Of a DNA stretch of 35,770 nucleotides, positions 11,152 through 30,771 are shown in pieces. The DNA is from an uncultured Candidatus Saccharibacteria bacterium (GTDB taxonomy: Bacteria > Patescibacteriota > Dojkabacteria > J137), in assembly GCA_965230975.1 (NCBI GenBank), contig OZ246402.1, forward strand, positions 1-35,770, read 5' to 3'. Below the pieces are notes generated by a model. The model had not been told where the DNA came from. It ran no database searches and saw only the letters and a list, made by a program, of their open reading frames with translations. A program made the translations under genes and the position numbers. The stretch's first letter is position 1, and the number at the start of each line of letters is the position of its first letter.

Positions 11152-11181
11152 AAAAGGCCTAACATACATGTTAGGCCTTTT
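11152..11181 (-). terminator. Hairpin terminator abutting the 3' end of tRNA-fMet
   Basis: A 13-bp perfect stem pairs AAAAGGCCTAACA with TGTTAGGCCTTTT around loop TACA. On the minus strand it is followed by a T-rich tract (TTTTGATTT). Confidence 0.6.
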
Positions 11182-11255
11182 GGTTGCGGGGGTCCGATTC
11201 GAACGGACGACCTTCAGGTTATGAGCCTGACGAGCTGCCACTGCTCTACCCCGCG
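11181..11255 (-). tRNA. Initiator tRNA-fMet (CAU), CCA encoded
   Basis: The revcomp reads CGCGGGGTAGAGCAGTGGCAGCTCGTCAGGCTCATAACCTGAAGGTCGTCCGTTCGAATCGGACCCCCGCAACCA. It is nearly identical in layout to E. coli tRNA-fMet and has the diagnostic C1xA72 mismatch. The anticodon loop is CUCAUAA. Confidence 0.92.
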
Positions 11256-11352
11256 ATATTAATTTGTTAAACGTCAATTTGAATGCTGGTTATTATACCT
11301 CTAAACTTTGGTTTTTAAAAGATAGGTAATAAGATTAGAGTATGATACCAGT

Positions 11353-11862: not shown

Positions 11863-11865
11863 GTT

Positions 11866-12300: not shown

Positions 12301-12358
12301 TTTAAATAAATGTAATTTAAATTGACCCTATAATATTAGCTATGCTAAGATCAATGAC

Positions 12359-13237
12359 ATGAAAAAAAACTCATCACTGACAAATTTAGAATTGATAAAT
12401 AACTTTACTGAATATCTTAAAGAAAACAACAAGTCAGTGTCAACAATAATAGCCTATAAGAAAGATTTGCAACAGTTTAATGAAATTAATAAAGACAAAA
12501 GCTTTGATTTATACACTCCTGATGACATAAAATCCGCTGTTAACGAGCTTAGAAATGTCCATAAAGTAACATTAAAAACTGTATCAAGAAAAATCAATAG
12601 TATTAGAAGCTTTTTTAAATATCTTTATTCGAATCAATTAGTTAGCAATAACCCTTCTACAGAAATTAGTCATCCTAAATATAGAAATAAAAAACCTAGA
12701 GTTTTATCTCAAATGGAATATTATGCTCTAAGGGAAGCTAGTAGAAATAACTTTAGATTAAATACCATGATCGAGTTATTGCTACAAACCGGATTAAGAA
12801 TTAGCGAGCTTTCAAATTTGCAAAAAAGAGACTTGTACTTAGATGAAAAGAACCCATATTTAGTTGTGAGAGGATATTCCAGTACAGACGAACGAAGTGT
12901 GCCACTTAATTATAAGATTAAAGTATGCTTAAGGAATTATTTAAATCAAGACAATACAAAATTCCAACCATTATTCTCTACCAAAACAGGTAAAAATATT
13001 GAAATTAGGAATATTAGAACATCTATAGATAAAGCTATTGCCAACGCTCAAATAAAAAATGCATGCGTTAACGACTTAAGAAACACTTTTATTGTTGCCC
13101 AACTAAGTAGTGGTATGAGTTTAGATTTCTTGGCAAAAATAGTTGGCCATAAAAATATAAATACTACACTTAAGTACACCATGATGCTTTCAAAGAAATA
13201 TCAGCCAAGTTCTGTAAATCATGTAGTAGAATTGTAA
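12359..13237 (+). CDS. Tyrosine recombinase (XerC/XerD-like or phage-integrase family)
   Basis: 292 aa. The N-terminal SAM-like domain includes FTEYLKENNKSVSTIIAYKKDLQQF. Catalytic residues are Arg in LLLQTGLRISEL, a second Arg in DLRNTF, and His...Tyr in GHKNINTTLKYT. The gene lies ~550 bp from a tRNA with att-like repeats. Confidence 0.85.
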   Translation: MKKNSSLTNLELINNFTEYLKENNKSVSTIIAYKKDLQQFNEINKDKSFDLYTPDDIKSAVNELRNVHKVTLKTVSRKINSIRSFFKYLYSNQLVSNNPSTEISHPKYRNKKPRVLSQMEYYALREASRNNFRLNTMIELLLQTGLRISELSNLQKRDLYLDEKNPYLVVRGYSSTDERSVPLNYKIKVCLRNYLNQDNTKFQPLFSTKTGKNIEIRNIRTSIDKAIANAQIKNACVNDLRNTFIVAQLSSGMSLDFLAKIVGHKNINTTLKYTMMLSKKYQPSSVNHVVEL

Positions 13238-13265
13238 TAGATAGTTATTTAGAATATTAAAAGAT

Positions 13266-13754
13266 ATGCATAACCAAGTGCTTTCTATTTTAAATAATAT
13301 TTCATTACTCAGTTCTTCTAATTTACTAAGCAAATTCTCAGACAAGCTTGCATATGTTCTTAATACTCTAGATGTAAATAACTATAAGGATTTAGCCGAT
13401 GGGTTAAGAGTATATTACTCTCTAGACTGGAATATTGTTAATGACACGTTGATTAACAAGGTTTTAGCAATGCTTGCAGTTATTTATTTTTACCAAGCAG
13501 ATATAAATCGAAGTAATTTATTATTCGAACTGAATAAGTTTCGTACTCAAAATATTGAAGATTTAGAAATTGAAAAGTTTATTTCAATTATTGAATATTT
13601 TATAAATAACTTAGCAGATATAGTTACAACTTCCACTTTGGAAACAGATACTCATAGAAAAAAACTAATCTTAATGGAAAGGGTTAATAAATTTATTGAA
13701 GATTCAGAAATTAGAGATAAGACTGTGGATTTAATGCTATTAATGAATTCTTAA
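13266..13754 (+). CDS. Hypothetical protein
   Basis: 162 aa, predicted helical, with no recognisable motif. It is co-directional with the recombinase and 28 nt downstream of it. Confidence 0.5.
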   Translation: MHNQVLSILNNISLLSSSNLLSKFSDKLAYVLNTLDVNNYKDLADGLRVYYSLDWNIVNDTLINKVLAMLAVIYFYQADINRSNLLFELNKFRTQNIEDLEIEKFISIIEYFINNLADIVTTSTLETDTHRKKLILMERVNKFIEDSEIRDKTVDLMLLMNS

Positions 13755-13790
13755 CTAAGAAATTTGAGGTCTAAAACTTATATTCCTAAT

Positions 13791-13828
13791 AGGCCAGCGC
13801 GGACTCGAACCGCGGACCCCAGCTTTAT
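13791..13828 (-). pseudogene. Partial copy of the 3' half of tRNA-Ile(UAU), from the acceptor 3' strand to the anticodon loop
   Basis: The 38 nt at 13791-13828 match 13856-13893 with 2 mismatches (13796 and 13803). Identity stops exactly inside the anticodon loop (..CTTTAT) and continues as GGGCTAAATT. Confidence 0.75.
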
Positions 13829-13854
13829 GGGCTAAATTCTTTTAATTTACTGAA

Positions 13855-13928
13855 TAGGCCTGCGCGGGCTCGAACCGCGGACCCCAGCTTTATAAGAACT
13901 GTGCTCTAACCACCTGAGCTACAGGCCT
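13855..13928 (-). tRNA. tRNA-Ile with a genomically encoded UAU anticodon
   Basis: The revcomp reads AGGCCTGTAGCTCAGGTGGTTAGAGCACAGTTCTTATAAAGCTGGGGTCCGCGGTTCGAGCCCGCGCAGGCCTA. The acceptor is AGGCCUG/CAGGCCU and the D stem GCUC/GAGC. The anticodon stem is CAGUU/AGCUG with loop CUUAUAA (anticodon UAU). The T stem is CGCGG/CCGCG. Confidence 0.85.
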
Positions 13929-13944
13929 ATTCAGTAAACTGGTA

Positions 13945-14189: not shown

Positions 14190-16643
14190 TTAAAAGCCTA
14201 AACCACCAAAAAGACTATCTTTCTTATCCTCTTTTTCCTTCTCTTTGGTAAAGGTACTTCTTAATTTAATCTCGTTTTCTATAATATTTCTATCTCTACC
14301 ATATTTAAGCCTTGAAATTTGCCTTGCGACTTCTGCAATTTCTTGATTAGGCTTACCAATCATATCATAAGGAGAATCTCCATAAAAAGACCTACAAGAG
14401 AATGCAGGAGTTGGCTTACCATCTGTAAGCATTTTTAAATAGAAACTATAGTTTTCTACCTGTTGCAAATCTTTTGGATCAACTAAATCTTCCCCTACCA
14501 CTTTACCCAAAAAAGGTGCATCCTCTTCTCCAATTCTCATAATTGCTTTGTTTCCAACATTACCAAATACCGCATCTTTAATTTTGGTGTTGCCACCCTC
14601 TCTAGTTAACTGTCCCAAGAACTGATGCCCAATTGTAAGTGCAAGTTTGTATTTTCTAGCTTCAGATAGAATAGTTACAATTCCATCTGTTAAAAAGTTT
14701 TGAAACTCATCTACATACAAGTAAAATGGAGTTCTTTCTGACTCCGGAACATTCTCTCTTTCTAAGGCTCCTACCAAAAGTTTACCAACCAAAACCATAC
14801 CTAATAAAGATGCATTAAAGTCTCCAATCTTACCTTTTGAGAGCTTAACAATTAGAATCTTCTTTTTATCCATTATTTCTCTAAATTTTATGGATGATTC
14901 TTGCTGAGAAACTATTGGCCTTAAATATGCATTTGATAAAAAGCTTGCCATTTTAGATGTGACATATGGGGTAACATTTTTTAGAGAAACATCTCCACCC
15001 GCCTGCTCTGCTTGTTTTTTCCAAAAATCTACGGTTTCTTGATTTTTACATTTAGAAAGTTTATATGCTCTATAACCCTCATCTGCAAAAACTTTTGGCA
15101 CTTCAAGCAAGGTTGCACCAGATTCAGTGTCTTCTGTTAATAATAAAATTGCGTACCTAAAATATTGTTCAAACATTGGGCCTCCAGTGACCTTCAAGTT
15201 GTACAAGGTATCAAATATATTCAACATTTCATTAATTGCCAATGTTCTTTGCTCCTCGTTATTAAACTCTAACATGTTTATTCCCACAGGTCTTTCAAGA
15301 TCTGCTGGGTCTACAATTACAACGTCTTCTATTCTTTCTGGGGGTACTTGAGCCAAAATTTTCTCGGCATCTGTTCCGTGAGGGTCTATATACCCACAAC
15401 CATGACCCATTTTCATGTCTCTAATCATCATTCCACTCATGAAACCAGATTTACCTGTACCTGTTTGTCCAATAACATAAAAATGTCTCAGCCTATCTTC
15501 TGGCTTTAAAAAGATTTCTCTAAACTGACCTCTATATGTATTTCGGCCAACATACATATAGTCTTTTTGAAAGCTATTAGTTACAAAATCTGGTGCTGGC
15601 AAACGTTTTGCCAATTGCCATTTAATATACGGTGTTTTTATATTTCTGTTTGGGAAGTGAAAAAGAGTTGCAAGTTCTGATGTGTTAAGAACCATAGAAT
15701 CTGAAGGGATTCTATATATAAATTCTGCCACTATGTTTTTTAAATTTTCGCTAGAAACTTTCTTTAGTTTATTACTACCAATCTTGGTAAATGGCTCAAA
15801 AGAACTTAACATGTTTGTTAAATGAGTATCTGCAGAAAACTTATCATCAGAAATAACTACTAATCTTGCACAAACATTAAATACAGGTTTTTGTATTTTT
15901 TGTTCTACAAAAGATAAACCCTCATCTTCTTTTTTAGGTTTTGGAGTCTCTCCTTCTTTTGGTGCAGGAGGTGGTTCTTTCATTTTATTTACATAGTCTT
16001 TTGTTTTATTTCTCCACTCAGAATCTGCCGGGGTTATAATTACTTGAAATGCGGCAGCTTCTTTATCTTGCAATTTACTAAATGCATCTGTAAGTGTTGA
16101 AATTGTATCTACAGGTAGTTCTTCGTAAGTTTGTATTGGATATTTAGAGTCCTTATCTAAAATAAGACCCGTATATGCAACGTGACTATCATCATCTGGA
16201 AAAAGGTTGTATTCTTTTACTATAGTTATTTCTGCTGTTGGGTATGTTCCATTAATTTGCCTATCTACAAGGCTTGAGATTTTTTTAGGGCAAACTACAT
16301 AAAACTTGATAGTTTCTTTAAAAGCGACCATTTCAAAACTAATAAATGACCTGGCTTTAATGTGTTTATTTAAACCTTTTAACTTTTCACTTACACTCAG
16401 TAAACCTGAATACAATTGCTCTGCAGCTTTAATTTCCACATCATTATTTTGAGGCAATTTAATTTCGTAAAATACCAAATTTAAGCCCTTTTCTTTTAAT
16501 ACATTCTCTTTAAATTTATTAAAAAGTTTTAATGCAATTATGTAAAGCACTATGAAAATAATTATCACAGCTACCAAACCAATTCCCAATGGAACTAAAA
16601 AATTGAAGTTGAAGTTTGTATTTAATATACTTTGAGACCTCAT
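14190..16643 (-). CDS. Membrane-anchored T4SS-type P-loop ATPase (VirD4/TraD/TrwB-like coupling protein; VirB4-like not excluded)
   Basis: 817 aa. It has an N-terminal TM helix (LVPLGIGLVAVIIIFIVLYIIAL), a ~350-aa N-domain and a Pro/Lys/Glu-rich linker (EPPPAPKEGETPKPKKEDE). Walker A is VIGQTGTGKSG and Walker B is FYLYVDEFQNF. ARKYKLALTIGHQFLGQL resembles the TrwB/TraD GxQxxxQL block. Confidence 0.65.
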   Translation of the reverse strand: MRSQSILNTNFNFNFLVPLGIGLVAVIIIFIVLYIIALKLFNKFKENVLKEKGLNLVFYEIKLPQNNDVEIKAAEQLYSGLLSVSEKLKGLNKHIKARSFISFEMVAFKETIKFYVVCPKKISSLVDRQINGTYPTAEITIVKEYNLFPDDDSHVAYTGLILDKDSKYPIQTYEELPVDTISTLTDAFSKLQDKEAAAFQVIITPADSEWRNKTKDYVNKMKEPPPAPKEGETPKPKKEDEGLSFVEQKIQKPVFNVCARLVVISDDKFSADTHLTNMLSSFEPFTKIGSNKLKKVSSENLKNIVAEFIYRIPSDSMVLNTSELATLFHFPNRNIKTPYIKWQLAKRLPAPDFVTNSFQKDYMYVGRNTYRGQFREIFLKPEDRLRHFYVIGQTGTGKSGFMSGMMIRDMKMGHGCGYIDPHGTDAEKILAQVPPERIEDVVIVDPADLERPVGINMLEFNNEEQRTLAINEMLNIFDTLYNLKVTGGPMFEQYFRYAILLLTEDTESGATLLEVPKVFADEGYRAYKLSKCKNQETVDFWKKQAEQAGGDVSLKNVTPYVTSKMASFLSNAYLRPIVSQQESSIKFREIMDKKKILIVKLSKGKIGDFNASLLGMVLVGKLLVGALERENVPESERTPFYLYVDEFQNFLTDGIVTILSEARKYKLALTIGHQFLGQLTREGGNTKIKDAVFGNVGNKAIMRIGEEDAPFLGKVVGEDLVDPKDLQQVENYSFYLKMLTDGKPTPAFSCRSFYGDSPYDMIGKPNQEIAEVARQISRLKYGRDRNIIENEIKLRSTFTKEKEKEDKKDSLFGGLGF

Positions 16644-17781: not shown

Positions 17782-20322
17782 TTACAAAGACACTTTTATA
17801 ATTTTTGACCCATCTAAAACATACACTGTATTTGTTGATTGATCTACCACAACCTCTTTTATATTAGAAAATATATTCTCTGTACCTCTATAAACAAATT
17901 GCTGAATAAACTTTACATTTTTTTGTTCATTATCTATAACTTCAAATACCATGACTCTTTTATTTTTTGGATCTGCAACTGCCATATAGTTTTGGTCAAG
18001 ATCAATTGCTGTAGCTTGTGATAAGGAGTTGAAATCAGTTTGAGCAAAGTTTTGATATGTTTCATAATTCAAACTATTGTCACCTCCTGCCAAGTATCTT
18101 TTAATACCTGTGCCCTCAATCAAAACATAAATTTCGTAAGGCACAGAGATATCTATAGCCCTAGCGAATTCTGCATCTGTCTTCCAATTTGGAGGATTAA
18201 TCGTTACATAAATTGAGCCTCCGCCTCCATAAGAATTACCTACTTTATCTCGTTTGAATATTTGCTGATGATTTTGGTGCAATTCGTATAGAGCATCATT
18301 ATTTGAATATATTGCTGCTTCGCTAATATTACCTATTAAAGCTGTAGACAAGCCGGCTAACCTTGTAAATTCTCCGGATTGTGTATTTAAAATACCCATA
18401 GAGCTTGATGTATCTGAATCGTAAACAACTAGATTATTTGCAGCATTTCTAACTAAATGTGCTGGTGTATTTAAGTTTTTAATTAGCTCTTGAGCAGTAG
18501 AGTTTACGCCTGTATTTATTTTGTAAACTACATTTCTTTTAGCATCTGTTGCATACAAGCTACCATTTGCAATAGCTAAATCTGATAGATTTGTATCTGA
18601 AAATAACTTGCCAACATCAGTTACTAATTGAATGTTTGACTCGTTAATCTCTTTAATAAAAGATAATGAATCTTTAGCTAAATTAATTTTCACTTTAAGT
18701 CTATCTAATTCATCTGTAAAAAGGTTCTCTTTCTTTTGAGTATCAATAGATGTAGCAAGTGTAGTTAATTTATTGCTTAAAATATCTTTTTTTGTTTGAT
18801 CTTGATTCTTAACAGTCTCAACTTGACTTACCGCTTGGTTAACTTCAGATTCTAATTGAGACACTTTAGATGTAACATTTTGAATTCTTTCTGATTCCCT
18901 TCTTGAATTATCTGCATCTTTCCAAGCGAAATAAATCAAACCTACTAAAATAATTAGTACAATAACCATTATTACTCTATTACGTTTTAATTTATCTGCA
19001 TTCTTTCTTCTATCTAACCTATCTAAACCTATAACATCATTTTTTAAAAACTGTAAAAACTTACCAAATAATATTTTAATTTTTTGGAAAAGTGTTTTAG
19101 CAACTTGCTGATATGTTTTTTGACCTGTAGAGCCCTCGCCTTTTTTAAAAGCAAAATTTTCTTTTAATGTAGCAGCAGTATTTTTTACACTTTCAAAAGT
19201 ATTTGAGTTTGCATTTGGGTTTTGAACATATGAGTTGTTTAAACCATTGTTTGTTGACTTTGAATCCTGATATTCATTGCTTTGATCATCTTCAAATTCT
19301 GTAAATTCAGGACCAACCTGTGCTTTATTTTTGTAAGTTGGTAACTTGGATGCTAAACCAGAGACTTTTTGAGATACATTCTTAAACCGGTTACCAAACT
19401 TATTTACAAGACCTACTGTGGTTGTGCTCTCTTCTACTAAATCGATATCATTCTCTCTACCATCATTTGCCCATTCATTATCATAAGGTATTGATTCTGT
19501 TTGCTCACCCGTAGGGTTTAATTGAGTAGATGATTGTAAATCATTTGAGTTGGTAAATGTATCTTCATTAAAATCATTAGGTGTATCTTCTATAAATTCT
19601 CCTATAGGGACTTGAGAGTCAATAACTTCAGTTGTATTGTCTACATCTATAATAGGAGCTTGTGGTACTGGTGCAAATGAATTCCAATTTTCAGATTCGT
19701 CTGCAAAGATCAATATTGCAGAACCTTTATCTTCTGATATATCTCCAAGTAAATCTACTTGTAAATACTTTGCTAATTCTTCTAATTTTGATAGTGAACT
19801 TGTATAAGGTGTTGATGTTGTTAACAAGATTCTATCTGAACTCTCAAGCTTTAAGCTACCTGTTTTTACAAAGCCCATCATATTTGCATCTACCAACCCT
19901 TTTGAAATATCTACAAGCTTTTGATTTCTGTAAATAAATAACTTACTGTCTCCAATAACCCCAACTGTTAGCAAATCTTTATTAACAAGTGCAATAGACA
20001 TTTCTATATCCATCCCTTTTTCTAAAATCTCATCTTCTCTAGATACAATTACCTCTAGTTTGGTTTTCATTTTTTGCAAAGCTTCTTCTAGCTTTACAAT
20101 CTCATCCTCTTCGACTAAATCGTTATAGTAAGCATCTTGAAACTCGTCTAGTAGCATTTTAGCTATTCTTTCTAACTCTACATTTTCTGCGTCGGATTTG
20201 AGTCTTACAACACAAAATAACTCACTTTCAATCTCAGCGCCTTCATCTGGCCTATAGCCGTAAATACCAGACCAGTCGTTACCTGAAATCTTTCCAACTA
20301 AGTAATTCGCTTTTATATTCAT
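17782..20322 (-). CDS. Bitopic protein: N-terminal PP2C/SpoIIE-like domain, TM helix, coiled coil, C-terminal beta-propeller-like repeats
   Basis: 846 aa. PP2C-like blocks are LLTVGVIGDSKLFIYRNQKL, SDRILLTTS and GSAILIFAD, but no DGHGG-type metal motif is seen. A long N/S/T/Q-rich linker leads to the TM helix VIMVIVLIILVGLIYFAW and a coiled coil. Blade-like repeats include LYATDAKRNVVYKI, LVVYDSD, YMAVADPKNKRVMVFEV and VYVLDGSKIIKV. Confidence 0.5.
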   Translation of the reverse strand: MNIKANYLVGKISGNDWSGIYGYRPDEGAEIESELFCVVRLKSDAENVELERIAKMLLDEFQDAYYNDLVEEDEIVKLEEALQKMKTKLEVIVSREDEILEKGMDIEMSIALVNKDLLTVGVIGDSKLFIYRNQKLVDISKGLVDANMMGFVKTGSLKLESSDRILLTTSTPYTSSLSKLEELAKYLQVDLLGDISEDKGSAILIFADESENWNSFAPVPQAPIIDVDNTTEVIDSQVPIGEFIEDTPNDFNEDTFTNSNDLQSSTQLNPTGEQTESIPYDNEWANDGRENDIDLVEESTTTVGLVNKFGNRFKNVSQKVSGLASKLPTYKNKAQVGPEFTEFEDDQSNEYQDSKSTNNGLNNSYVQNPNANSNTFESVKNTAATLKENFAFKKGEGSTGQKTYQQVAKTLFQKIKILFGKFLQFLKNDVIGLDRLDRRKNADKLKRNRVIMVIVLIILVGLIYFAWKDADNSRRESERIQNVTSKVSQLESEVNQAVSQVETVKNQDQTKKDILSNKLTTLATSIDTQKKENLFTDELDRLKVKINLAKDSLSFIKEINESNIQLVTDVGKLFSDTNLSDLAIANGSLYATDAKRNVVYKINTGVNSTAQELIKNLNTPAHLVRNAANNLVVYDSDTSSSMGILNTQSGEFTRLAGLSTALIGNISEAAIYSNNDALYELHQNHQQIFKRDKVGNSYGGGGSIYVTINPPNWKTDAEFARAIDISVPYEIYVLIEGTGIKRYLAGGDNSLNYETYQNFAQTDFNSLSQATAIDLDQNYMAVADPKNKRVMVFEVIDNEQKNVKFIQQFVYRGTENIFSNIKEVVVDQSTNTVYVLDGSKIIKVSL

Positions 20323-21428: not shown

Positions 21429-23222
21429 TTAGTTAACATTCAAATAGTAAGTTTGACTATAAATAAAGTCATTTGTCCCATTACTAGAAACCCATTCGTT
21501 CCAATAGTACTTAAACCACCAGCCACCAATAACCCTAATTTGACCGTTATTACCATTTAAATAAACTTTCTTAACTCTAAGAGATGGGTCACGCTCAAAA
21601 GATAAACTTTTTAGACCTCCAATATCTAGCATCCACTGACCCAATTGATTGTGGTAAAGCATTGATTCTATATTTGCCATGGTATAAGAATAAGTTTTCC
21701 ATTGCCACAAACCGCATGGTGAACCTTGGCAATAATAGTTCCAGTATAGTCGTGAGTTTTGAGCATATTGATTATCGTTAACAGACCTTAAATATGGCCG
21801 ATCTGCAGTTGCACTGCCTCCAAGACTTTGAAATCTTGTATCATAATCTGCTGATCCATTTCCCTGATTATTGTCTGCCGAATATAAAGCCTCTATTAAC
21901 TGACCTGAATAAGTAATTACCAAATCTTTTGTTTGTTGAACTAAATCCATCTCATTTTGATCTCCATTTTTAAAATAAGAAACCTGACAATATGTTGTTA
22001 AACAAATTGGATAATTAGGATCACCGTTATTTGTATATTTTGCTGCATAAGTTCTGGCAGCTATAATTTGAGCTTTTCTTGCCTCTGAATGCCACCCTTC
22101 TGGCATTTCACCCAAACCAGATAAATAAGAATCAAAGCTAACTCTATCTGTAACAACAGGACCATAGTAATTACCTCCATAATAACAACCCTCCTGATAT
22201 GGGGCTAAGGCTGGATTACCCTGACAATATTTAACACTTATTTGAGAATTTAACGAATATTGAACAACTTGTGCGCCAGTATAGTAAAACTGAAGTATTT
22301 GAGTTGCATTCAACCCTTGTTCTGCCGCACCCTTAGCCCCATATTGAGACATTCCAACTCCATGACCCATTGCCAAGTCCCTACCATTTCCGCAAAGGTA
22401 ATACGTACCGGCAGGTGCATTTGCATCTTTTATACAATTTGTATTTCCTAACGTACCTTGATTTTGACGTAAGATTTCCTCTTCCCTTAAAATTGCTTGA
22501 CGCTGTTCTTCACTTAATGACTGAATACTCCCTTGTATATTTTTTACACTTACTTGCAAATTATTTATTTGATTTCCGCTAAAAGATACCATATATGCTA
22601 AATATGCTATTTGAGCTTCTAAATCCCTTTTCTTTTGTTCAAGTTCAGATTGGGCCTTTTCTAAATCAGATTTAGCAGTTTCATATTTTGTTATTTCTTC
22701 AACTAGTGCTGTTATTTCTGTATTTACATAGCCAATATCTGTACTTTGCTTGTCCGCAACAATTTCTGTATATTTTTCGTTTTTTCTGAAATCATAATCC
22801 TCTTTTATAACCTTGTTAATGTCTGTATTTGTTGTTCTCCACTCCATATAATTAGATCTGACAGAATTTATTCTGGTAATTTCTCTTTGAAGCTTTTCAA
22901 GCTCTTTGAGCGCCCTGTTTTGATTGTATAAATCTAATTGTATTTTATTGTATTCGATTTCTGCCTCTATCTTTTTTATTTCAGCTTCAATTGCCGGAAC
23001 TCCTCCACCTATACTTGAAAGATCCTGAGTATATTTATCTAAATTTGTTTTGGCTTGTTCTAACTGACTTTGAGTTTGGTTAAGTTGATTTTGCTGGTTT
23101 AATATATCTTGTGCTATTTCTGCAGATGATTTAGCCAAGACAGTTAAAGGTAAAAAGGCAATTGAAAATGCTATTAAAACAATACTAATTTTGAAGATTT
23201 TAAAGGTTTTCATATAAGACAA
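21429..23222 (-). CDS. Secreted coiled-coil protein with SpoIID/LytB-like peptidoglycan-remodelling domain (segment order appears permuted)
   Basis: 597 aa. A signal peptide (FKISIVLIAFSIAFLPLTVLA) is followed by ~230 aa of coiled coil. SpoIID signatures are GHGVGMSQYGAKGAAEQGLNATQILQFYYTG, KAQIIAARTYAAKY, IEALYSADNNQGNGSAD and PYLRSV. Confidence 0.75.
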   Translation of the reverse strand: MSYMKTFKIFKISIVLIAFSIAFLPLTVLAKSSAEIAQDILNQQNQLNQTQSQLEQAKTNLDKYTQDLSSIGGGVPAIEAEIKKIEAEIEYNKIQLDLYNQNRALKELEKLQREITRINSVRSNYMEWRTTNTDINKVIKEDYDFRKNEKYTEIVADKQSTDIGYVNTEITALVEEITKYETAKSDLEKAQSELEQKKRDLEAQIAYLAYMVSFSGNQINNLQVSVKNIQGSIQSLSEEQRQAILREEEILRQNQGTLGNTNCIKDANAPAGTYYLCGNGRDLAMGHGVGMSQYGAKGAAEQGLNATQILQFYYTGAQVVQYSLNSQISVKYCQGNPALAPYQEGCYYGGNYYGPVVTDRVSFDSYLSGLGEMPEGWHSEARKAQIIAARTYAAKYTNNGDPNYPICLTTYCQVSYFKNGDQNEMDLVQQTKDLVITYSGQLIEALYSADNNQGNGSADYDTRFQSLGGSATADRPYLRSVNDNQYAQNSRLYWNYYCQGSPCGLWQWKTYSYTMANIESMLYHNQLGQWMLDIGGLKSLSFERDPSLRVKKVYLNGNNGQIRVIGGWWFKYYWNEWVSSNGTNDFIYSQTYYLNVN

Positions 23223-24618
23223 TTACCTGCCTTATATTGTTATATTTTTCTATGATTTCGTCAAATCTAAGTTGCTTACAGAAAATTACAAGTGGCAAAT
23301 ATACTTTTGTATTTTGAGTTTGATTATTGCCCTGCATTAACATTGAAATGTATTCATCATCCGGCTTTACAGATAAATTTGAAGAAAACTCAATATTTTC
23401 TTTTTCTATTTTTAAAATATCCAACTCTCTTCTTTTTTTATAATAGGTATCTACATCTATATTTTGCTTTTCTAGTTCTTCTAAACTTTTTTTTGATTCC
23501 TCTATTTGCGAAATTGTATTTTTTAAAGATGACTGAATATTTTCTAAGGTTTCACCTCCAAGGGATTTATTTATATTTTGATTTATATTCTCCTGCTCTG
23601 CTAATAAAGCATTTAAGTATGCACCCTTTACCATCTTCATATCTTCGGCTTGTGTTGCAAAAAGTTGTACATCAGTACCTTGTGGTATAGGAGCTACAGG
23701 CATTTGTTCATTTTTTTTGATCTCTTTTTTATTACTAACCTGTATAACAACAAATATCACAAGAAAAGTCATAGACACTGCTAAACCCAAAAGTAATAAG
23801 CCTATATTTGATGAAATCAAAAAATAAACTATGCTTGCTAAAACCTGAATAACAACAAGGGCTAAGATCCACTTATGTTTTAGTTTAATTGGATCTGGTT
23901 CTATTTTGTAGGTTTCTGCCATTCTACTAGCCTGCTTAAAACCACCACTTAATTTTTGATTTAACTGATCAATTCTCTCTTCTTTAATTTTATTTATCTC
24001 ATCTGTTTTATGATGTGCATTTTCATTTTGAACCTTTAAAACCTCTGACTCTACCTTTGTTTTGCCATCTAACAAAGATTGTACAGATGCAAGCTTTTGT
24101 TCTAAATTACCTTTAGATTTCTCTAATTCTGAAATCTTGCTGTTTAAAGACTCCTTGTTTGTTTTTTGACTTTGATAACCCGATACATCTTTATCTAAGT
24201 TCTTAATTTTGATAAGTATTTCTGCAAGCTTATTAAAATTTGCAATTTCATTTTCTTGCATACCATTTGTAAGCTGTTGAAATTTTGAATTTACATTCGT
24301 AGATGGCGTAGCTACATTTAACCCAATAGATTTTTCTTGAGCTATAGAATCTATATTTAATTGTGCAGTTTCAGGCAAAAGAATGTATTCACTTAGCAAT
24401 TGATTGTGAACAGGAATTTGTAAACCTTGTAAAAATGTAAGGTAGTTTGCAACAGATAAATGCTCTTGGCCATCAACTAATATATTTGATTCTACAGAGG
24501 ATTGGCCTCCGTTTAGAAAGTTTTTTATTTCTGATGCAACTTCGCTAGATATTGATACAGGTGCATTAGTATTTAAAACCAAATCTTTAATTTTTAGTGA
24601 CTTTATATCTATTCTCAT
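23200..24618 (-). CDS. Coiled-coil membrane protein with central TM hairpin
   Basis: 472 aa. Long heptad-like stretches lie on both sides of two adjacent TM helices (WILALVVIQVLASIVYFLI and LLLLGLAVSMTFLVIFVVIQV). Its end overlaps the SpoIID-like gene start. Confidence 0.55.
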   Translation of the reverse strand: MRIDIKSLKIKDLVLNTNAPVSISSEVASEIKNFLNGGQSSVESNILVDGQEHLSVANYLTFLQGLQIPVHNQLLSEYILLPETAQLNIDSIAQEKSIGLNVATPSTNVNSKFQQLTNGMQENEIANFNKLAEILIKIKNLDKDVSGYQSQKTNKESLNSKISELEKSKGNLEQKLASVQSLLDGKTKVESEVLKVQNENAHHKTDEINKIKEERIDQLNQKLSGGFKQASRMAETYKIEPDPIKLKHKWILALVVIQVLASIVYFLISSNIGLLLLGLAVSMTFLVIFVVIQVSNKKEIKKNEQMPVAPIPQGTDVQLFATQAEDMKMVKGAYLNALLAEQENINQNINKSLGGETLENIQSSLKNTISQIEESKKSLEELEKQNIDVDTYYKKRRELDILKIEKENIEFSSNLSVKPDDEYISMLMQGNNQTQNTKVYLPLVIFCKQLRFDEIIEKYNNIRQVIVLYENL

Positions 24619-24681: not shown

Positions 24682-25488
24682 TTAATTTTGAAGCCAAGTA
24701 CCCCGATCTGCAGTACTACCGCCTGTTGCGCACACAAAGAACATACGACTTGCTGCACCTGCTGAATCTGGAGCTAAGTTTTCTGTATATATTTGAGTGG
24801 TTGTAATATACCTTTCGCCACAAAAGATCATTGACCCCGGGTTGCTACAAGCTAATCCATCTGGCAATGTGCCCCCAGATTCACAAGTATTTCTAAGGTA
24901 AGTTTCGTTTCCAGTACATATGCTTGTAAAAAAGAATTGAAATCCGGGCATATTTACGTTGTAACATTCTACATCTGTATTTACACCAAGCAATCTAAAC
25001 ACCGTTGTTAAAATTGGAACTGCCAAAAAAACTAGTATAAAACCTATTACGTAATTAATTATCTTTTTTCTAAGCTCTACTAGTTGATTGTCAGAAGTTC
25101 CACCTCTTAAAATATATTGATAGCCTAAAACCACAAGTAACACAAAAGAAAAAGATGCAACGAGTGCCCAAATTATGTATAAAATTCTAATAAACCAAAG
25201 TTCTATCTGCTGCAAAGCTGGTGGTATTAAATAAGCTCTATCATCTCCGGAAACGCCATCATCATCTAGGCCTCTACATAAATAATAGCCTGTTGCACTA
25301 TCTTTATAAATCGTTGCACTACTTCTGTTTCCAAATTTATCTAAACATTGGTAAGATGCTTCATCGTTACCTGAAAATGGGTTTGTTTGAATTTGTGCTT
25401 GGGCAATAGTTGGGAAAGCGATAGTAAAAAGAAGGCCTAATACTAGGCCAACTTTTAATTTATTTTTAGGTAAACCTATTAAATTCAT
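24682..25488 (-). CDS. VirB2/TrbC-like pilin paralog 6 with Cys-containing N- and C-terminal extracellular extensions
   Basis: 268 aa. The signal peptide ends AFPTIAQA. The core is TM, RGGTSDNQLVELRKK, TM. There are 8 Cys, 6 of them in the ~95-aa C-terminal module. Confidence 0.5.
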   Translation of the reverse strand: MNLIGLPKNKLKVGLVLGLLFTIAFPTIAQAQIQTNPFSGNDEASYQCLDKFGNRSSATIYKDSATGYYLCRGLDDDGVSGDDRAYLIPPALQQIELWFIRILYIIWALVASFSFVLLVVLGYQYILRGGTSDNQLVELRKKIINYVIGFILVFLAVPILTTVFRLLGVNTDVECYNVNMPGFQFFFTSICTGNETYLRNTCESGGTLPDGLACSNPGSMIFCGERYITTTQIYTENLAPDSAGAASRMFFVCATGGSTADRGTWLQN

Positions 25489-25491
25489 TAA

Positions 25492-25980
25492 TTAGTTTAA
25501 ATCATTTGTAATTTGATCTACTCCTTCTTGTGGCAATGGGTTTGTTAATGCACCAGTTGCCTCAAATAGTACCAAAATCAAGACTAGGCCAATAACACCT
25601 ACAAACAATGCTATTAAACCAACAAATACGCTTTTAATTGCTTTTTGTGCAGATTCAATTTTATCTTTATCTCCTTCAGATCTAATATATTTAATAGCAG
25701 CTTTAATAACAATGTAAACAGCAACAACAATAATTGCAATAAAGATAAACGATGCTCCTAATCTTGCCAAGTTTACTGCTTGTTGTGCTAAAGTTGTTTT
25801 ATCTGGAACAGCATCGGCTTTTCCTGAACAAACGCTATCTATACCAAAAGCCCCAATGTTTTTAATGAATGGGAATATATCACAAACTACACTACCTGTT
25901 GTTTGTGCATGAACCGGAATTGGGTTTATAGTTAAAGTTGCTAATGCGATTGCTGTTGCTACCAAAAGTTTCCTAAACAT
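25492..25980 (-). CDS. VirB2/TrbC-like pilin paralog 5
   Basis: 162 aa. The signal peptide ends PVHAQ. The core is TM (ASFIFIAIIVVAVYIVI), KYIRSEGDKDKIESAQKAIK, TM (VFVGLIALFVGVIGLVLILVL). It has 2 Cys. Confidence 0.6.
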   Translation of the reverse strand: MFRKLLVATAIALATLTINPIPVHAQTTGSVVCDIFPFIKNIGAFGIDSVCSGKADAVPDKTTLAQQAVNLARLGASFIFIAIIVVAVYIVIKAAIKYIRSEGDKDKIESAQKAIKSVFVGLIALFVGVIGLVLILVLFEATGALTNPLPQEGVDQITNDLN

Positions 25981-26043
25981 AGTTATCTTTTAAAATCTAT
26001 AAATTAATTAAATCACAATTATTTTAACACTGCAATAGAATTA

Positions 26044-26493
26044 TTAAAGAATAGGTAAATCCACCAAAGGTGGATCTTCAACCTGCTCATTAAAAATACC
26101 TGTTGCATCAAATAATACTGATATTACTATAATACCTATTACACCAACAAAGATTATTATTATTCCAAAAAATACACCTCTAATATTTTCAATACCTTCT
26201 TGAACTTTATCTTTGTCTCCTTCACTTCTGACAATCTTTAATACTGCTCTAATAATTAAAATTATCCCAAGCCCAATTATTGCAACAAATACCAGCGTTA
26301 AACCAAGTTTTATTAAATTACCCGAATCTGTATATGCACTTGCACAATCACCATTTGGGCAGCCTCCAACATCTGCACAAGGTATAAAATCACATAATCC
26401 TTGTGCTTTAATGCTTAAGTTAAAAAGACCGGGTAAAAAAGACGAGAATATTAAGATTAGTGCAAAAAATATAGTAAATAGTTTTGTTTTCAT
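26044..26493 (-). CDS. VirB2/TrbC-like pilin paralog 4
   Basis: 149 aa with a signal peptide and the motif CDFIPCADVGGCPNGDC (4 Cys). The core is TM, KIVRSEGDKDKVQEGIENIR, TM. The loop is near-identical to paralog 5. Confidence 0.6.
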   Translation of the reverse strand: MKTKLFTIFFALILIFSSFLPGLFNLSIKAQGLCDFIPCADVGGCPNGDCASAYTDSGNLIKLGLTLVFVAIIGLGIILIIRAVLKIVRSEGDKDKVQEGIENIRGVFFGIIIIFVGVIGIIVISVLFDATGIFNEQVEDPPLVDLPIL

Positions 26494-26505
26494 ATTGTTT
26501 TTAAA

Positions 26506-27030
26506 TTAAATTAGGCCCCCTCCCCCTGATGACCCACCAGTGTTTGAGGTATAACCACATTCTGCATCTGCTTCTTCCCTAGCATTTGCTCCACCTTTAT
26601 CTAAAAATGCCTGGAAATAGTAGTCGTAATCTGCAGATTCACAAGATCTAAACATTCTAGGCCACTCAAATATTGTTCCTAGGCCAGCAAATATTCCAAT
26701 AATACTTAAAATGACAGGAAATAAAAAACTCATAAAAACCCCTAGCAATATGTTTTGAAGTTTTTTTATTAGTTCTTGAATCTTATCGGCCTTTCCACCG
26801 CTTTGCATTCCTTCTACCCCTAACTGCACAATTTTAACTATCCAAAAAGCTACTATACCCAAGGTTGCAATTACCCCTAAAAAGGAAAGTAATGAAAAAA
26901 CAGTAGATGCAGACCCTGCAACAGCGCTAAAATCTACAAATAGTGGAATTGTTATTGGTTTTAAATTAACTTCGTCTGGTAAGTTTACTGTTGATTGTTG
27001 CAAAATTGTACTAATTATAGTTTGTAACAT
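26506..27030 (-). CDS. VirB2/TrbC-like pilin paralog 3 (no obvious cleavable signal; C-terminal extension)
   Basis: 174 aa. The core is TM (FLGVIATLGIVAFWIV), GMQSGGKADKIQELIKKLQN, TM. The C-terminal tail has 2 Cys and a Gly/Ser-rich end. Confidence 0.5.
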   Translation of the reverse strand: MLQTIISTILQQSTVNLPDEVNLKPITIPLFVDFSAVAGSASTVFSLLSFLGVIATLGIVAFWIVKIVQLGVEGMQSGGKADKIQELIKKLQNILLGVFMSFLFPVILSIIGIFAGLGTIFEWPRMFRSCESADYDYYFQAFLDKGGANAREEADAECGYTSNTGGSSGGGGLI

Positions 27031-27032
27031 AT

Positions 27033-27770
27033 TTATTGAATAACAATTGTTGGCACACCGGAATCCACTGGTGCATCTGGGTTAACCTGAAAATTAATTG
27101 TATTTAATGCAGGCAAACCAAGTATGCTAAATATAATTTGGGTTATTAACAAGAATGTAAGCGCCAAAATAAAGCCAATCAAAATAGCCCTTGCTTCTTT
27201 ACTAACAGCTGCAATATCTTCTTCTTTTGTAGTATTTGGTAATTTTATAGCATATATATAAATACCTCTAAATGCAGCGTAAATTGCCAAAACACCTATA
27301 ACTGTTGAGAATATAAAATTAATGATTGTAGGGATTTTTTCGTATGTAATATTTACTTTTGTGTTAAATATTTCAAAAGCAAAAAAATTAAGCTCAGCTG
27401 GAGTATCTATAGCAACACTCTCGTCTTTACATTTATTTTCACAACAATCTACCCTGCCAGAAGAACCTGGAGTCGGTAATGATTTAGCTAAAATACATGC
27501 GTAATCGGGTTCATACTCTCCAGGTCCGGAACAACCTGCTGGAATACATGTAGATTGAATAGGACAAGCGCACACACCTGAACCACTAGAACTTTCTGTA
27601 CAGTAATATTGATTACCACCTCTAGTTGCACACCATTCAGTTACTAACTTACCCCTACAAAGTGAATCACTTAGTGGGCCACAATCTTGTGCCTTCACGT
27701 TATTAGAAACCAAGAACGATGCTATTACTAAGAAAGCTGTAAATAAAAATATTTTAAAGATATTATTCAT
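27033..27770 (-). CDS. VirB2/TrbC-like pilin paralog 2 with N-terminal 12-Cys module
   Basis: 245 aa with a signal peptide, then a ~90-aa module containing 12 Cys. The core is TM (FSTVIGVLAIYAAF), KLPNTTKEEDIAAVSKEAR, TM (ILIGFILALTFLLITQIIF). Confidence 0.5.
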   Translation of the reverse strand: MNNIFKIFLFTAFLVIASFLVSNNVKAQDCGPLSDSLCRGKLVTEWCATRGGNQYYCTESSSGSGVCACPIQSTCIPAGCSGPGEYEPDYACILAKSLPTPGSSGRVDCCENKCKDESVAIDTPAELNFFAFEIFNTKVNITYEKIPTIINFIFSTVIGVLAIYAAFRGIYIYAIKLPNTTKEEDIAAVSKEARAILIGFILALTFLLITQIIFSILGLPALNTINFQVNPDAPVDSGVPTIVIQ

Positions 27771-27773
27771 ATT

Positions 27774-28151
27774 TTAAAAAATATTAAGAGTATCTACTCC
27801 TAAGAAACTTGCAACCACACCTGTTATAGCTGGTGCGAATACTGCAATTGCCATACCAACAATTGCTGCAACAATAATATTTCTTGCTGTTTTAATTTTA
27901 CCCTCATCTCCTTGAGATGTTAGCCAAACCGCAGCAGCATAGAGAATCATTCCAATAAATGTGAGTATAAATAATGGTCTAATTAAGCTTGTTGCAAAGT
28001 TTATTACTTGTTCTAAATCATCAAATACAGTTGGATTTGGAATTTGAGGTAAACCCAAACTGCCAGAGCTAGCAAAAGTTGTAATTTTAAAAGATAAAGA
28101 AAAAACTAGCACTAATAAAAAAAGAACAAATTGTTTGGTTAACTTTTTCAT
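27774..28151 (-). CDS. VirB2/TrbC-like pilin paralog 1 (minimal form)
   Basis: 125 aa. The signal peptide ends TTFASS. The core is TM (LFILTFIGMILYAAAVWL), TSQGDEGKIKTARN, TM (IIVAAIVGMAIAVFAPAITGVV). It has no Cys. Confidence 0.6.
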   Translation of the reverse strand: MKKLTKQFVLFLLVLVFSLSFKITTFASSGSLGLPQIPNPTVFDDLEQVINFATSLIRPLFILTFIGMILYAAAVWLTSQGDEGKIKTARNIIVAAIVGMAIAVFAPAITGVVASFLGVDTLNIF

Positions 28152-28206: not shown

Positions 28207-30771
28207 TTACTTAACTTCTTGAATAGATAATCCGTTCAAAAAAACATCATCACCATCTTTTACATTACCTAAAATTATTTCATTTGCTAATATGTCTTCT
28301 ATTCTTTCTTGCACAACCCTTCTCAACTCTCTAGCACCCCACAATGGTGAGTAACCTATTTTGGCCAGTTCTTCTAATGTCTTATCATTCCAATGAATTA
28401 CAATACCTTTCTCGATTAACTTCGTATTGACTTCTGCTAAGAATTTCTCAACAATTTTTGTAATTTCTAACAAACTTAAATGTTTAAACATTATTAATTT
28501 ATCAAATCTATTTAAAAATTCAGGTCTAAAATAATTACTTAATATTTCTAAAGATGAACTTTTTATTTCTGAATAGCTCTCTTTTTGCTGGTATAACTTT
28601 TGAATCTCTTTTGACCCTACATTTGAAGTCATAATTATAATTGTATTGTAAAAATCTATTTTTCTTCCCATTCCATCTTTAAAGAATCCATCATCTAAGA
28701 CAGATAAAAATAAATCCAAAACTTTAGGATTTGCTTTTTCAATCTCATCTAATAATACCAAGGCAAAAGGCCTTGACCGAACTGTGTCTGCTAAAAAGCC
28801 TTTTGTATAACTCCCATCAGAATTATAACCACCTATCAATCTTGTTAAATTTTGCTCTTCTTGATATTCGGACATATCTATTCTAATCATTAAGTTCTCA
28901 CTTCCGTAATATAAATCTGCCAATGCTTTTGCTAATTCTGTTTTGCCTACCCCTGTTGGTCCGTAAAATAAAAACGAAGCTATTGGTTTTTTACTATTGG
29001 TTAATCCGGACCTTGATCTTTTAATTGCAGCAACTACAGGAGTTATTGCTTCGGTTTGACCAACTACTCTACTTTTTAAATTATCTTCCAAATTACCAAG
29101 CACCTGTTTTTCATCTATACCTAAGTTTCCAATCTTTACGCCAAGTTTTGTATAAAGAAGCTCTTCTACCAAAGAACCGTCCAAATAGTTGAAACCTTTA
29201 GACTTTGCCAAAACCATAGCCTCTTCTAATAAATCCATGCCTTTTAAAGGCATCTTTTTTTCGTAATCAAATTTATATGCATAATCTACAATTCTTTTAA
29301 GTGCCGAAAATTGAATAGATATTTGATTTTTGCTCTCTTTGCTAAGTGCTTCATCTGCCATTATTTGTAATGCAATTTGTGGGTCGGGCTCTTTAATTTC
29401 TAAAACATCAAATTTAGAAGCTAAATCTAAATCACTTTTTATATATTTTTGATAGTTTAATGGTTCATCAATCGCAATAAATTTAATTTTATTATCTAGT
29501 AGATTTTTTAATAGATTAACTGCTTCATCTTTCAAATTAGATCTAAAACTAAATAAACTTGTAAAGTTTTCACCAATTAATAGAATTTCACCAGATGCAG
29601 AAACCTCTTGAAATATTGCCAAAAATATTTTTTTTATATCTTCTATGCTTTGGGCATTTGCTATTATTTTTGCAAAGTTTAAAACAACAAGCCTACTATC
29701 TTTTAATTTTGAAGGCACGTCTTCTACTACCATTCTTGTAGCTAAATATTTTATAAAGGTTGTTTTGCCAACTCCACTTTCACCAAGCAAATAAACAAAT
29801 GTAGATGTATCTCTTTCTAGCAAAGACAATAAATTTGTCATTAACTCTTCTTTCCCAATTGAAATGCTAAAACTTCTGTTTGCGGCCTGGCTTGTTAAAT
29901 CTTGCCCGTATTTATCTAGCGTTGGAGTAATTGTAGATGTATATGTTGTATTTACGTCCCCAATCGGTTTAAGCTGGGACAAGATTTTCCATTTTTTTTG
30001 GTACTCAAATTTTTGATTTGAGTTAGAGTACCATTTTCTTAGGCCATCAAGTTCTAAATCTGTTACCTTGTTTTCTATCAAGCCAGGCCGCAAGTAATAT
30101 TTAAGCAATGTAAAAAATATTACATAAAGATTAATTCCAGATGTATTAAGTAAAATCCCTTCATTTAATAGTCTAGAAAAGAAATTTACATAATCTTCTG
30201 AAAAAGTTAAAAAGGTGGTTTTATTAACAAATTCATTTAATTGATCTGCATTTAACCCTAGCCTTTTTGAAAGGATGTTTGAAAACCTGGAGTCTTTTAT
30301 TAAGCTACTAAAAAGATATTTAATATAAGTGCTATCTTTATTATAAAGCTGATTTAATAACATTGAGGACTCTATATCTAAAAAGTCATTAATATAAAAC
30401 CCTTTTTCTTTTTTATTGGCAGATGCAAAGATTTTTGTGAGTTTTTGTTTTTTATGATTTAGTTCTAGGCTATTTCTGTCTCTTTTTAAAAAGTACCCAA
30501 TTATCAGTGAGACAATTAATAAATAAGGTATTAAATGTAATATACTTTTTGGCTTAATAAAATCTGCAAAATAGAATGTACCCTGTAATATCAAAATTCC
30601 AAAAACAATCAGTAATAAGATTATTGAAATTGAGATTAAAAAATTACCCAACTTTCTCTCTTGATTGTAACGTTCATGTTTTAAGCCGTTGTATTCAAAT
30701 AGTCTGCCAAAATCCAAGTAAATATAGATATTTCTAAATTCGAATAGTTTTTCAATACCTTGGTTTTTCAT
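28207..30771 (-). CDS. Membrane-anchored Hsp100/Clp-family double-AAA+ ATPase (ClpB/ClpA/ClpV-like; D1 degenerate, D2 intact)
   Basis: 854 aa with two N-terminal TM helices (FLISISIILLLIVFGILIL and LIPYLLIVSLIIGYF). D1 has Walker A GESGVGKT, but Walker B is ILLIGE (usual ILFIDE) and SKF replaces RRF. D2 has GPTGVGKTELAKALA, LVLLDEIEKA, MTSNVGS, PEFLNRFD and GARELRR. No M-domain-length insert or IGF/IGL ClpP loop is seen. Confidence 0.8.
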   Translation of the reverse strand: MKNQGIEKLFEFRNIYIYLDFGRLFEYNGLKHERYNQERKLGNFLISISIILLLIVFGILILQGTFYFADFIKPKSILHLIPYLLIVSLIIGYFLKRDRNSLELNHKKQKLTKIFASANKKEKGFYINDFLDIESSMLLNQLYNKDSTYIKYLFSSLIKDSRFSNILSKRLGLNADQLNEFVNKTTFLTFSEDYVNFFSRLLNEGILLNTSGINLYVIFFTLLKYYLRPGLIENKVTDLELDGLRKWYSNSNQKFEYQKKWKILSQLKPIGDVNTTYTSTITPTLDKYGQDLTSQAANRSFSISIGKEELMTNLLSLLERDTSTFVYLLGESGVGKTTFIKYLATRMVVEDVPSKLKDSRLVVLNFAKIIANAQSIEDIKKIFLAIFQEVSASGEILLIGENFTSLFSFRSNLKDEAVNLLKNLLDNKIKFIAIDEPLNYQKYIKSDLDLASKFDVLEIKEPDPQIALQIMADEALSKESKNQISIQFSALKRIVDYAYKFDYEKKMPLKGMDLLEEAMVLAKSKGFNYLDGSLVEELLYTKLGVKIGNLGIDEKQVLGNLEDNLKSRVVGQTEAITPVVAAIKRSRSGLTNSKKPIASFLFYGPTGVGKTELAKALADLYYGSENLMIRIDMSEYQEEQNLTRLIGGYNSDGSYTKGFLADTVRSRPFALVLLDEIEKANPKVLDLFLSVLDDGFFKDGMGRKIDFYNTIIIMTSNVGSKEIQKLYQQKESYSEIKSSSLEILSNYFRPEFLNRFDKLIMFKHLSLLEITKIVEKFLAEVNTKLIEKGIVIHWNDKTLEELAKIGYSPLWGARELRRVVQERIEDILANEIILGNVKDGDDVFLNGLSIQEVK

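Follow-up and report, generated by a model that had tools for sequence, protein, structure and literature searches.

Why should one chromosome encode six pilins of the same type in a row, most of them with a different cysteine-bearing outer segment, and are such genes alternatives to one another or parts of a single set? The question is raised by a 35,770-nucleotide stretch of Dojkabacteria DNA (contig OZ246402.1, referred to throughout as the window), on whose minus strand, from position 28151 to 24682, open-reading frame (ORF) calling finds six back-to-back ORFs with 3-63 nt between neighbours. These genes, which we designate W1 to W6 in reading order, encode proteins of 125, 245, 174, 149, 162 and 268 amino acids (aa) with 0, 12, 2, 4, 2 and 8 cysteines, reproducing exactly the six-paralog array and the counts listed in an earlier note on this DNA. 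The window is chromosomal (it holds an rRNA operon, tRNAs, polA, ftsH, smpB and groEL) and belongs to Dojkabacteria, within Patescibacteria or the Candidate Phyla Radiation (CPR), homologs of the W proteins being annotated as Candidatus Dojkabacteria, and the sequencing runs in which the sequence occurs are mostly wastewater, activated-sludge and bioreactor metagenomes. We describe a fixed and ordered set of VirB2/TrbC-type paralogs whose predicted outer segments carry cysteines of the disulfide type; these parts of the account (family, topology, disulfide-type ectodomains and fixed set), taken alone, we regard as very likely to be right.

Family, predicted topology and gene order

In a Pfam scan W1 matches PF18895, a pilin family of type IV secretion systems (T4SSs) (T4SS_pilin; 3.1e-7, 30.8 bits, gathering cutoff 26.6), W6 (25.4 bits), W2 (0.013) and W5 give sub-threshold matches to it, and W3 and W4 give none. 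All 19 W1 orthologs compared match PF18895 (best 3.4e-14) and 13 of the 19 match PF04956 (TrbC/VirB2). When per-position ortholog profiles were aligned with hhalign, each of W2-W6 was tied to W1 at 93-97% probability (W2-W1 95%, W3-W1 95%), W3 to W4 at 98.4%, and W4 to W5 at 99.9% with the ectodomain included, whilst pairwise identity among the six window cores is 18-39%. Because of the PF18895 matches, the hhalign links and this level of core identity, all six are, as judged by sequence and profile comparison, diverged VirB2/TrbC-like T4SS pilin paralogs of the PF18895 family.

Hydropathy and sequence inspection reveal a common plan: a signal peptide comes first, and a Lys/Asp-rich loop of 15-19 aa separates two long hydrophobic helices. 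The signal peptide is recognisable in five of the six paralogs, W3 being the exception, and ends at AxA-type sites (such as VKA/Q, IKA/Q, VHA/Q and AQA/Q, the slash marking the end). All 28 cysteines of the window paralogs are found either between the signal peptide and the first helix or in the C-terminal tail, for both of which an outward orientation is predicted; the helices and the loop contain none. The common two-helix core flanked by diverging outer segments, as described in the earlier note, is supported, and topology prediction puts the cysteine modules outside, not in the cytoplasm.

To follow the array through its relatives, one genome per species was scanned, giving 23 Dojkabacteria loci, and contigs from a protein look-up were added, giving 24 distinct loci; among the matches listed, homologs found with the W1 profile came from Dojkabacteria only. 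In 19 of the 24 distinct loci there are six pilin genes, no more and no fewer, arranged as in the window, and in those 19 the best match of each gene is the window paralog of that type or, for W4 and W5, its sister; the species concerned are only 38-55% identical. One of the 19 is the near-identical strain L001, whose copies of the six genes are 96-99% identical in aa sequence, with dN/dS of 0.02-0.35 against the window, no cysteine altered and no gene disrupted. That the six genes are intact and under purifying selection is well supported. Across species the cores share 43-64% identity and the ectodomains 23-39%.

The earlier note had taken a loop shared by W4 and W5 (RSEGDKDK) as a sign of recent duplication. 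The motif is indeed found in the inter-helix loops of both proteins, but an SxGD-type loop motif is family-wide, occurring also in W1 and in distant representatives, W4 and W5 are only 39% identical, and in every species sampled they fall into ortholog groups of their own. In a neighbour-joining tree the W3 and W5 positional groups separate cleanly and the W4 group stands beside W5; the W4/W5 duplication is accordingly older than the sampled class, and on the tree and the 39% identity we rejected a recent one.

Some loci depart mildly from the six-gene set. An extra W1 copy occurs in L012 (7170-7436), where it has no signal peptide, and in L026 (7072-7443), where it has a new CPSRVC pair; in L014 (9181-9828) there is an additional copy of W5, in which a low-complexity stretch is inserted N-terminally; the pilin genes of L028 number only five, and another contig is cut at its end. 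The W2 gene of L026 appeared to be a split pseudogene, a reading we rejected as the apparent split consists of masked runs of N.

Paired cysteines in the ectodomains

Cysteine is rare in the proteins around the array and concentrated in its ectodomains: the six ectodomains hold 28 cysteines in 526 residues (5.3%) vs. 30 in 8,457 (0.35%) for 23 other window ORFs, a 15-fold enrichment over neighbouring genes. In the window alone, five cysteine-bearing proteins would all have even counts by chance about once in 32 cases; the wider data take the parity well beyond chance. Across the 19 other loci, ectodomain cysteines are even in number in 94 of 96 cysteine-bearing orthologs, and counts change only in steps of two. 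Whole mature proteins of the same orthologs are even in 91 cases and odd in five, three of the five owing to one extra cysteine inside the second transmembrane (TM) helix of W2, which is why parity is cleaner (94 even, two odd) when ectodomains alone are counted. W1 stays free of cysteine in 109 of 120 homologs. In W6, which has an ectodomain on either side of the core, N-terminal and C-terminal counts are each even in 70 of 71 homologs; the single odd homolog lacks the conserved C48, was matched over only about half of the query and may be incomplete. Cysteines that W6 homologs have in addition co-occur in sets (phi 0.8-0.95).

The same pattern extends through the wider family. A profile of the six window cores, searched against 1.84 billion cluster representatives, recovered 9,871 family members at E <= 1e-3, and parity was counted in 90 single-hairpin representatives sharing <50% identity. 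Of their cysteine-bearing ectodomain segments, 101 of 104 are even (binomial p ~2e-26, ignoring relatedness), with 249 cysteines in 6,063 ectodomain residues vs. a single cysteine in 6,994 core residues. The cysteine pattern recurs in a pilin array on an unrelated contig with 47% GC. An even-number bias in the cysteines of exported proteins is reportedly an established genomic signature of disulfide formation, as Dutton et al. are said to have described in PNAS in 2008. Both the even bias and the conserved positions looked for in disulfide-bonded exported proteins are found here. Because the even bias is joined by changes in steps of two and by parity within each ectodomain, intradomain disulfides in the predicted ectodomains are well supported. 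The earlier note had taken the even counts as fitting disulfide-bonded domains outside the cell, and that suggestion is now backed by predicted topology, by conservation of the cysteines down to 38% identity between orthologs, and by their gain and loss in pairs.

The ectodomains of individual paralogs are of different sizes and builds (Table 1). The N-terminal ectodomain of W2 divides into two submodules of six cysteines, the distal of which is gained or lost as a block between species, whilst a further pair has been added in some lineages, so that the count in orthologs is 6, 8 or 12. In the membrane-proximal submodule C80, C92, C109, C110 and C114 are invariant or nearly so among 19-20 orthologs. 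The pairs C130/C158 of W3 and C33/C51 of W5 are each kept in 20 of 20 sequences. The string quoted for W4 in the earlier note, CDFIPCADVGGCPNGDC, is present and corresponds to cysteines 34, 39, 45 and 50, and no W4 ortholog, whether it has two cysteines or four, has an odd number. Each of the eight cysteines of W6 is conserved in at least 92% of 70 homologs, again down to 38% identity.

Table 1. Features of the pilin array and of the syntenic genes beside it, in window coordinates
Feature	Coordinates	Strand	Description	Cys in orthologs
ClpB-like double AAA+ ATPase	28207..30771	minus	Pfam AAA_2 and ClpB_D2-small; two N-terminal TM helices (39-96)	
W1, minimal VirB2/TrbC-like pilin	27774..28151	minus	125 aa, signal peptide, two helices, 0 Cys	0 in 18/19
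W2	27033..27770	minus	245 aa; core aa ~146-224; N-terminal ectodomain with 12 Cys (positions 30-114)	6, 8 or 12
W2 distal 6-Cys submodule	27561..27689	minus	aa ~28-70; C30, 38, 47, 57, 67, 69	
W2 membrane-proximal 6-Cys submodule	27417..27560	minus	aa ~71-118; CIPxGC...ACIL...DCCENKC; in every ortholog	
W3	26506..27030	minus	174 aa; C-terminal tail aa 124-174 (DNA 26509-26661) with C130/C158	2 (4 in three species)
W4	26044..26493	minus	149 aa; N-ectodomain aa 31-59 (DNA 26317-26403) with CDFIPC and CPNGDC	2 or 4
W5	25492..25980	minus	162 aa; N-ectodomain aa 26-69 (DNA 25774-25905) with C33/C51	2
W6	24682..25488	minus	268 aa; core aa 97-168 between two ectodomains	8, 10, 12 or 14
W6 N-terminal ectodomain	25201-25395	minus	small beta domain, C48/C71	
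W6 C-terminal ectodomain	24685-24984	minus	100-aa module, 6 Cys (175-253)	
472-aa coiled-coil protein	23200..24618	minus	central TM segment; conserved directly downstream of W6	
Secreted SpoIID-domain protein	21429..23222	minus	PF08486 8.8e-13; syntenic with array	
VirB4/VirD4-family T4SS ATPase	14190..16643	minus	817 aa; weak TraG-D_C and DUF87 matches	

The cysteine modules have no Pfam or NCBIfam match. An AlphaFold2 (AF2) model of W6 (predicted local distance difference test, pLDDT, 72) places the two helices of the hairpin at 91-127 and 133-166; the small beta domain on the N-terminal side is modelled with confidence, the C-module poorly. Searched with Foldseek against the PDB, this model matched nothing beyond generic helical hairpins at E > 1. 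The AF2 model of W2, built from an alignment of seq­uences numbering seven, reached a pLDDT of 50 and was judged unusable. PDB sequences searched with three profiles (W1, W2 N-module and W6 C-module) gave only spurious matches to the TM helices of G-protein-coupled receptors (GPCR). The description of these domains as knotted and adhesin-like finds no support in the fold or sequence searches, and both terms remain guesses.

Many family members are poly-pilins, in which two to seven tandem VirB2-like hairpins are joined in one chain (51 of 141 top new representatives). They have a single N-terminal signal peptide and no internal ones (P0197, P0198, P0200, P0201, P0206, P0209 and others; L029:1777-3435). 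P0197 consists of six near-identical repeats and lies inside a pilin array whose four other genes encode single or double pilins, on a 47% GC contig, whilst P0208, P0228, P0230 and P0233 have 4-5 cysteines per outside linker, plus a cysteine-rich C-terminal tail.

The surrounding locus and its expression

The array lies within a conserved envelope locus, which begins with a 107-aa membrane protein, the ClpB-like AAA+ protein, W1-W6 and the 472-aa coiled-coil TM protein, and continues with the SpoIID protein, membrane proteins of 269 and 846 aa, SmpB, a 192-aa protein and the ATPase. The ClpB-like gene is directly upstream of the array in nearly all Dojkabacteria loci examined, and this membrane-anchored unfoldase might have a role in pilin extraction or quality control. 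The SpoIID protein, whose TTG start overlaps the end of the 472-aa gene by 23 nt, has a long coiled-coil N-terminal region and eight cysteines, unusually many for this proteome; it is a candidate cell-wall remodelling partner, which may play a VirB1-like role. About 8 kb from the array, with smpB between, is the VirB4/VirD4-like ATPase, whose synteny is conserved; its NCBIfam matches are to TraD and VirD4-like CD1115, its precomputed annotation is DUF8128, and a search of PDB sequences gave no match. No VirB3, VirB6 or VirB8 homolog was recognised with the profile libraries used.

The syntenic 846-aa protein (17782-20322, minus strand) has weak similarity to PP2C-type phosphatases in its N-terminal part, one TM helix (445-471) and weak ScyD/ScyE-type, possibly repeat-like, similarity at its C-terminus. 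Further along, a XerC/D-type tyrosine recombinase (12359-13237) and a 162-aa ORF without a family match form a short plus-strand island (window 10981-13929), with two tRNA-Met genes and one for tRNA-Ile(UAU) at its flanks; elsewhere nearly all of the window is minus-strand.

Wastewater metatranscriptome assemblies contain pieces of all six pilin genes at 90-100% identity, at low depth and with DNA carry-over possible, and in the RNA contigs the variants seen in W4 are third-position changes within codons. For transcription of all six this is weak support, and it gives no indication of the major subunit. The earlier note had allowed that a single paralog might be expressed whilst the rest decay; the six intact genes with dN/dS of 0.02-0.35 speak otherwise, with the transcript pieces as weak additional evidence. 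Promoter-like sites are no commoner than in shuffled sequence, terminator-like sites are few and mostly within genes, and no attenuator follows W1, the gap between W1 and W2 being 3 nt. No Shine-Dalgarno motif was found upstream of the six pilin genes or their neighbours, which have AT-rich leaders, and the 16S 3' end still keeps CACCTCCTTT; as no pilin gene is preceded by such a motif, translation signals, like the promoter and terminator sites, are uninformative on stoichiometry. Contigs from three of the metatranscriptome runs connect 28641/28647 directly with 28733, so that 85-91 nt of the ClpB-like gene are missing, and a high-depth contig (62-72x) matches W3 only to 26767 (region 26752-26767) before it diverges; both kinds of contig probably derive from homologs in other organisms.

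Known systems and competing explanations

Canonical VirB2/TrbC/TraA pilins, which build the T-pilus and the F-pilus, have a signal peptide and a helix-loop-helix hairpin with a charged loop, both termini lying on the outer side. The window paralogs share this hairpin plan, and W1 orthologs match the corresponding family PF04956. The W1 profile found no sequence match to any solved pilin in the PDB. Canonical conjugative pilins are single-copy, about 70 aa when mature, without ectodomains, sometimes cyclised and found in diderms; in contrast, five of the six window paralogs have disulfide-type ectodomains of 30-120 aa, placed N- and/or C-terminally. Type IV pili combine a bulk subunit with co-encoded subunits of low abundance and brace the exposed D-region by disulfide bonds. 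To such major and minor sets the array offers an analogy only, as fold and assembly machine are unrelated: the window paralogs have no prepilin-peptidase motif, and their core is a hairpin, not the single N-terminal helix of type IV pilins.

Closer in kind are the tandem VirB2-like arrays of Patescibacteria, of which 441, with 2-11 genes each, have been reported from 383 assemblies (PMC12102498). In Southlakia epibionticum ML1 an array of six pilin genes, located within the T4SS gene cluster, is essential (PMC10633639, PMC12857230), and the T4SS-like machine with its pilin array is essential for the epibiotic life of this only genetically tractable Patescibacterium (PMC10633639, PMC11665869); for the Dojkabacteria array, purifying selection would support such a need only indirectly. 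The window array resembles these as a chromosomal tandem of PF18895/VirB2-like genes near T4SS-like genes in a CPR bacterium; it has at least two tandem VirB2-like genes of low mutual identity on a Patescibacteria chromosome, as in the published array definition (PMC12102498), its paralogs are 18-39% identical vs. a reported average of 25% (PMC12102498), and it has six members, like that of S. epibionticum. It differs from published arrays, for which versatility in host adaptation has been proposed, in being a fixed and ordered orthologous hexad with type-specific cysteine scaffolds, and in its place after a membrane ClpB-like AAA+ gene. Cysteines or disulfides are not mentioned in PMC12102498, PMC10633639 or PMC12857230, and a full-text literature search joining Patescibacteria, disulfide, pilin and T4SS found no paper. 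Tandem VirB2-like arrays of Patescibacteria, an essential six-gene array included, are thus already known and the Dojkabacteria array joins that kind; what is new against the papers searched is the even-cysteine rule, the orphan cysteine modules (among them the ectodomains of W2 and W6 with their modular build) and the hexad in its conserved order, which are refinements and not a new kind of system.

We propose, with moderate confidence, that the array encodes a fixed, anciently diverged pilin hexad, in which W1 provides the bulk and W2-W6 are accessory subunits with disulfide-braced modules. The six VirB2/TrbC-type paralogs would belong to a chromosomal T4SS-like envelope machine of the Dojkabacteria cell; five of the six would be exported via a cleavable signal peptide, and each would insert as a helical hairpin, so oriented that the short Lys/Asp-rich loop faces the cytoplasm while the two ends lie outside. 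The rare cysteines, paired and nearly confined to the outside segments, would brace ectodomains of 30-120 aa by intradomain disulfides. W1, which has no ectodomain, is cysteine-free and is the best canonical VirB2 match, is a plausible candidate for the bulk structural subunit, with W2-W6 as non-redundant accessory subunits co-assembling with it, their fast-evolving modules placed on the outer face, tip or base and perhaps contacting the cell wall or a host surface. Disulfide formation, filament formation and the major and accessory roles are what we infer from these patterns.

Several points weigh against this proposal. Direct observation is lacking for the pilus, the disulfides and the stoichiometry, and the RNA evidence consists of low-depth contigs in which DNA carry-over is possible. 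W3 has no recognisable signal peptide, and the core of W1 is not the best conserved (cross-species identity 0.56, vs. 0.64 for W6 and 0.63 for W5). The W6 model is mediocre (pLDDT 72), that of W2 unusable (pLDDT 50), and neither the W6 fold search nor the W1, W2 N-module and W6 C-module profile searches found anything similar in the PDB. No DsbA-, DsbB- or VKOR-type gene occurs in the 36-kb window or in the loci of ~20 kb, which are a part of each genome; a motif scan of the window and all loci for thioredoxin- or DsbA-like CxxC proteins also gave no candidate and, at ~20 kb per genome, is uninformative.

Many CPR bacteria are anaerobic fermenters, which, like the absence of an oxidase gene from the window and the ~20-kb loci, would suit cysteines that bind metal in Zn or Fe-S knuckles, or that take part in redox chemistry or lipid modification, instead of forming structural disulfides, and the C-x4-C-x5-C-x4-C of W4 and the CC-x3-C of W2 are superficially knuckle-like. 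We consider this highly improbable, and rejected metal binding, since a single cysteine pair, which cannot form a tetrahedral Cys4 site, is the commonest state (W3, W5, most W4 orthologs and 61 of 90 representatives), counts shift by two and not four, and the segments are predicted to be extracytoplasmic. A membrane hetero-oligomer that forms no filament, such as a channel or stalk-like platform whose ectodomains anchor to peptidoglycan or S-layer in a monoderm-type envelope, would accord with the general absence of pili from monoderm T4SSs (PMC12102498, PMC12857230), and six distinct fixed subunits suit a defined complex better than a homopolymer; the neighbours encode envelope proteins (the membrane AAA+, the coiled-coil TM protein and the SpoIID hydrolase), and the fusion of 2-7 hairpins per chain in the family shows that hairpins pack side by side. 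As W1-type proteins are bona fide matches to the pilus-forming TrbC/VirB2 families, and reviews treat Patescibacteria arrays as potential pilus subunits (PMC12857230), we think such a complex unlikely.

The array might also be a repertoire for recognition, an alternative that the earlier note too had named, or for variation: alternative and interchangeable pilins for different host strains or for evading host defences. The tandem virB2 paralogs beside the T4SS of Bartonella, Anaplasma and Rickettsia, which the window array resembles in this respect, are read as antigenic-variation or host-range alternates (as cited in PMC12102498); a repertoire is proposed for the multi-copy virB2 of Bartonella and Anaplasma, and PMC12102498 suggests one for Patescibacteria. 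Ectodomains diverge far faster than cores (identity 0.23-0.29 vs. 0.43-0.64), cysteine submodules of W2 and W6 are gained or lost between species, the few aa changes between near-identical strains cluster in the W2 and W5 ectodomain segments, and extra copies occur occasionally (L012, L014 and L026). Unlike those virB2 families, however, the Dojkabacteria paralogs are conserved one to one under purifying selection, each type keeping its own cysteine scaffold, and their order is the same in 19 of 24 loci, although the species share only 38-55% identity. The variation in copy number and sequence between strains that marks a variable virB2 repertoire was not found, L001 having the same content and 19 of 24 loci six genes, and no shuffling, pseudogene reservoir or strain-level presence and absence was seen; the fixed, ordered, 1:1 orthologous set disfavours the repertoire, which we find very doubtful.

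A bolder version of the proposed hexad, which we rate as distinctly improbable, is that a single heteromeric VirB2-type assembly requires all six as protomers that cannot stand in for one another; W2-W6 might, for instance, form one five-membered cap or base layer on a W1 shaft. If so, the W2-W6 layer would replace the VirB5 tip pentamer, a component missing from monoderm and CPR systems, and the assembly would be the first heteromeric conjugative-type pilus, with a monoderm-like builder and disulfide-braced modules for host contact.

For Dojkabacteria, the published suggestion that such paralogs give host versatility is not matched by the data. A fixed set with fast-evolving ectodomains on conserved disulfide scaffolds instead implies a testable heteromeric assembly with defined host-facing modules, of which W2 aa 28-134 and W6 aa 32-96 and 169-268 are nominated for expression, antibodies or binders and disulfide mapping. 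The results further imply that extracytoplasmic disulfides are made by these ultra-small, mostly fermentative bacteria.

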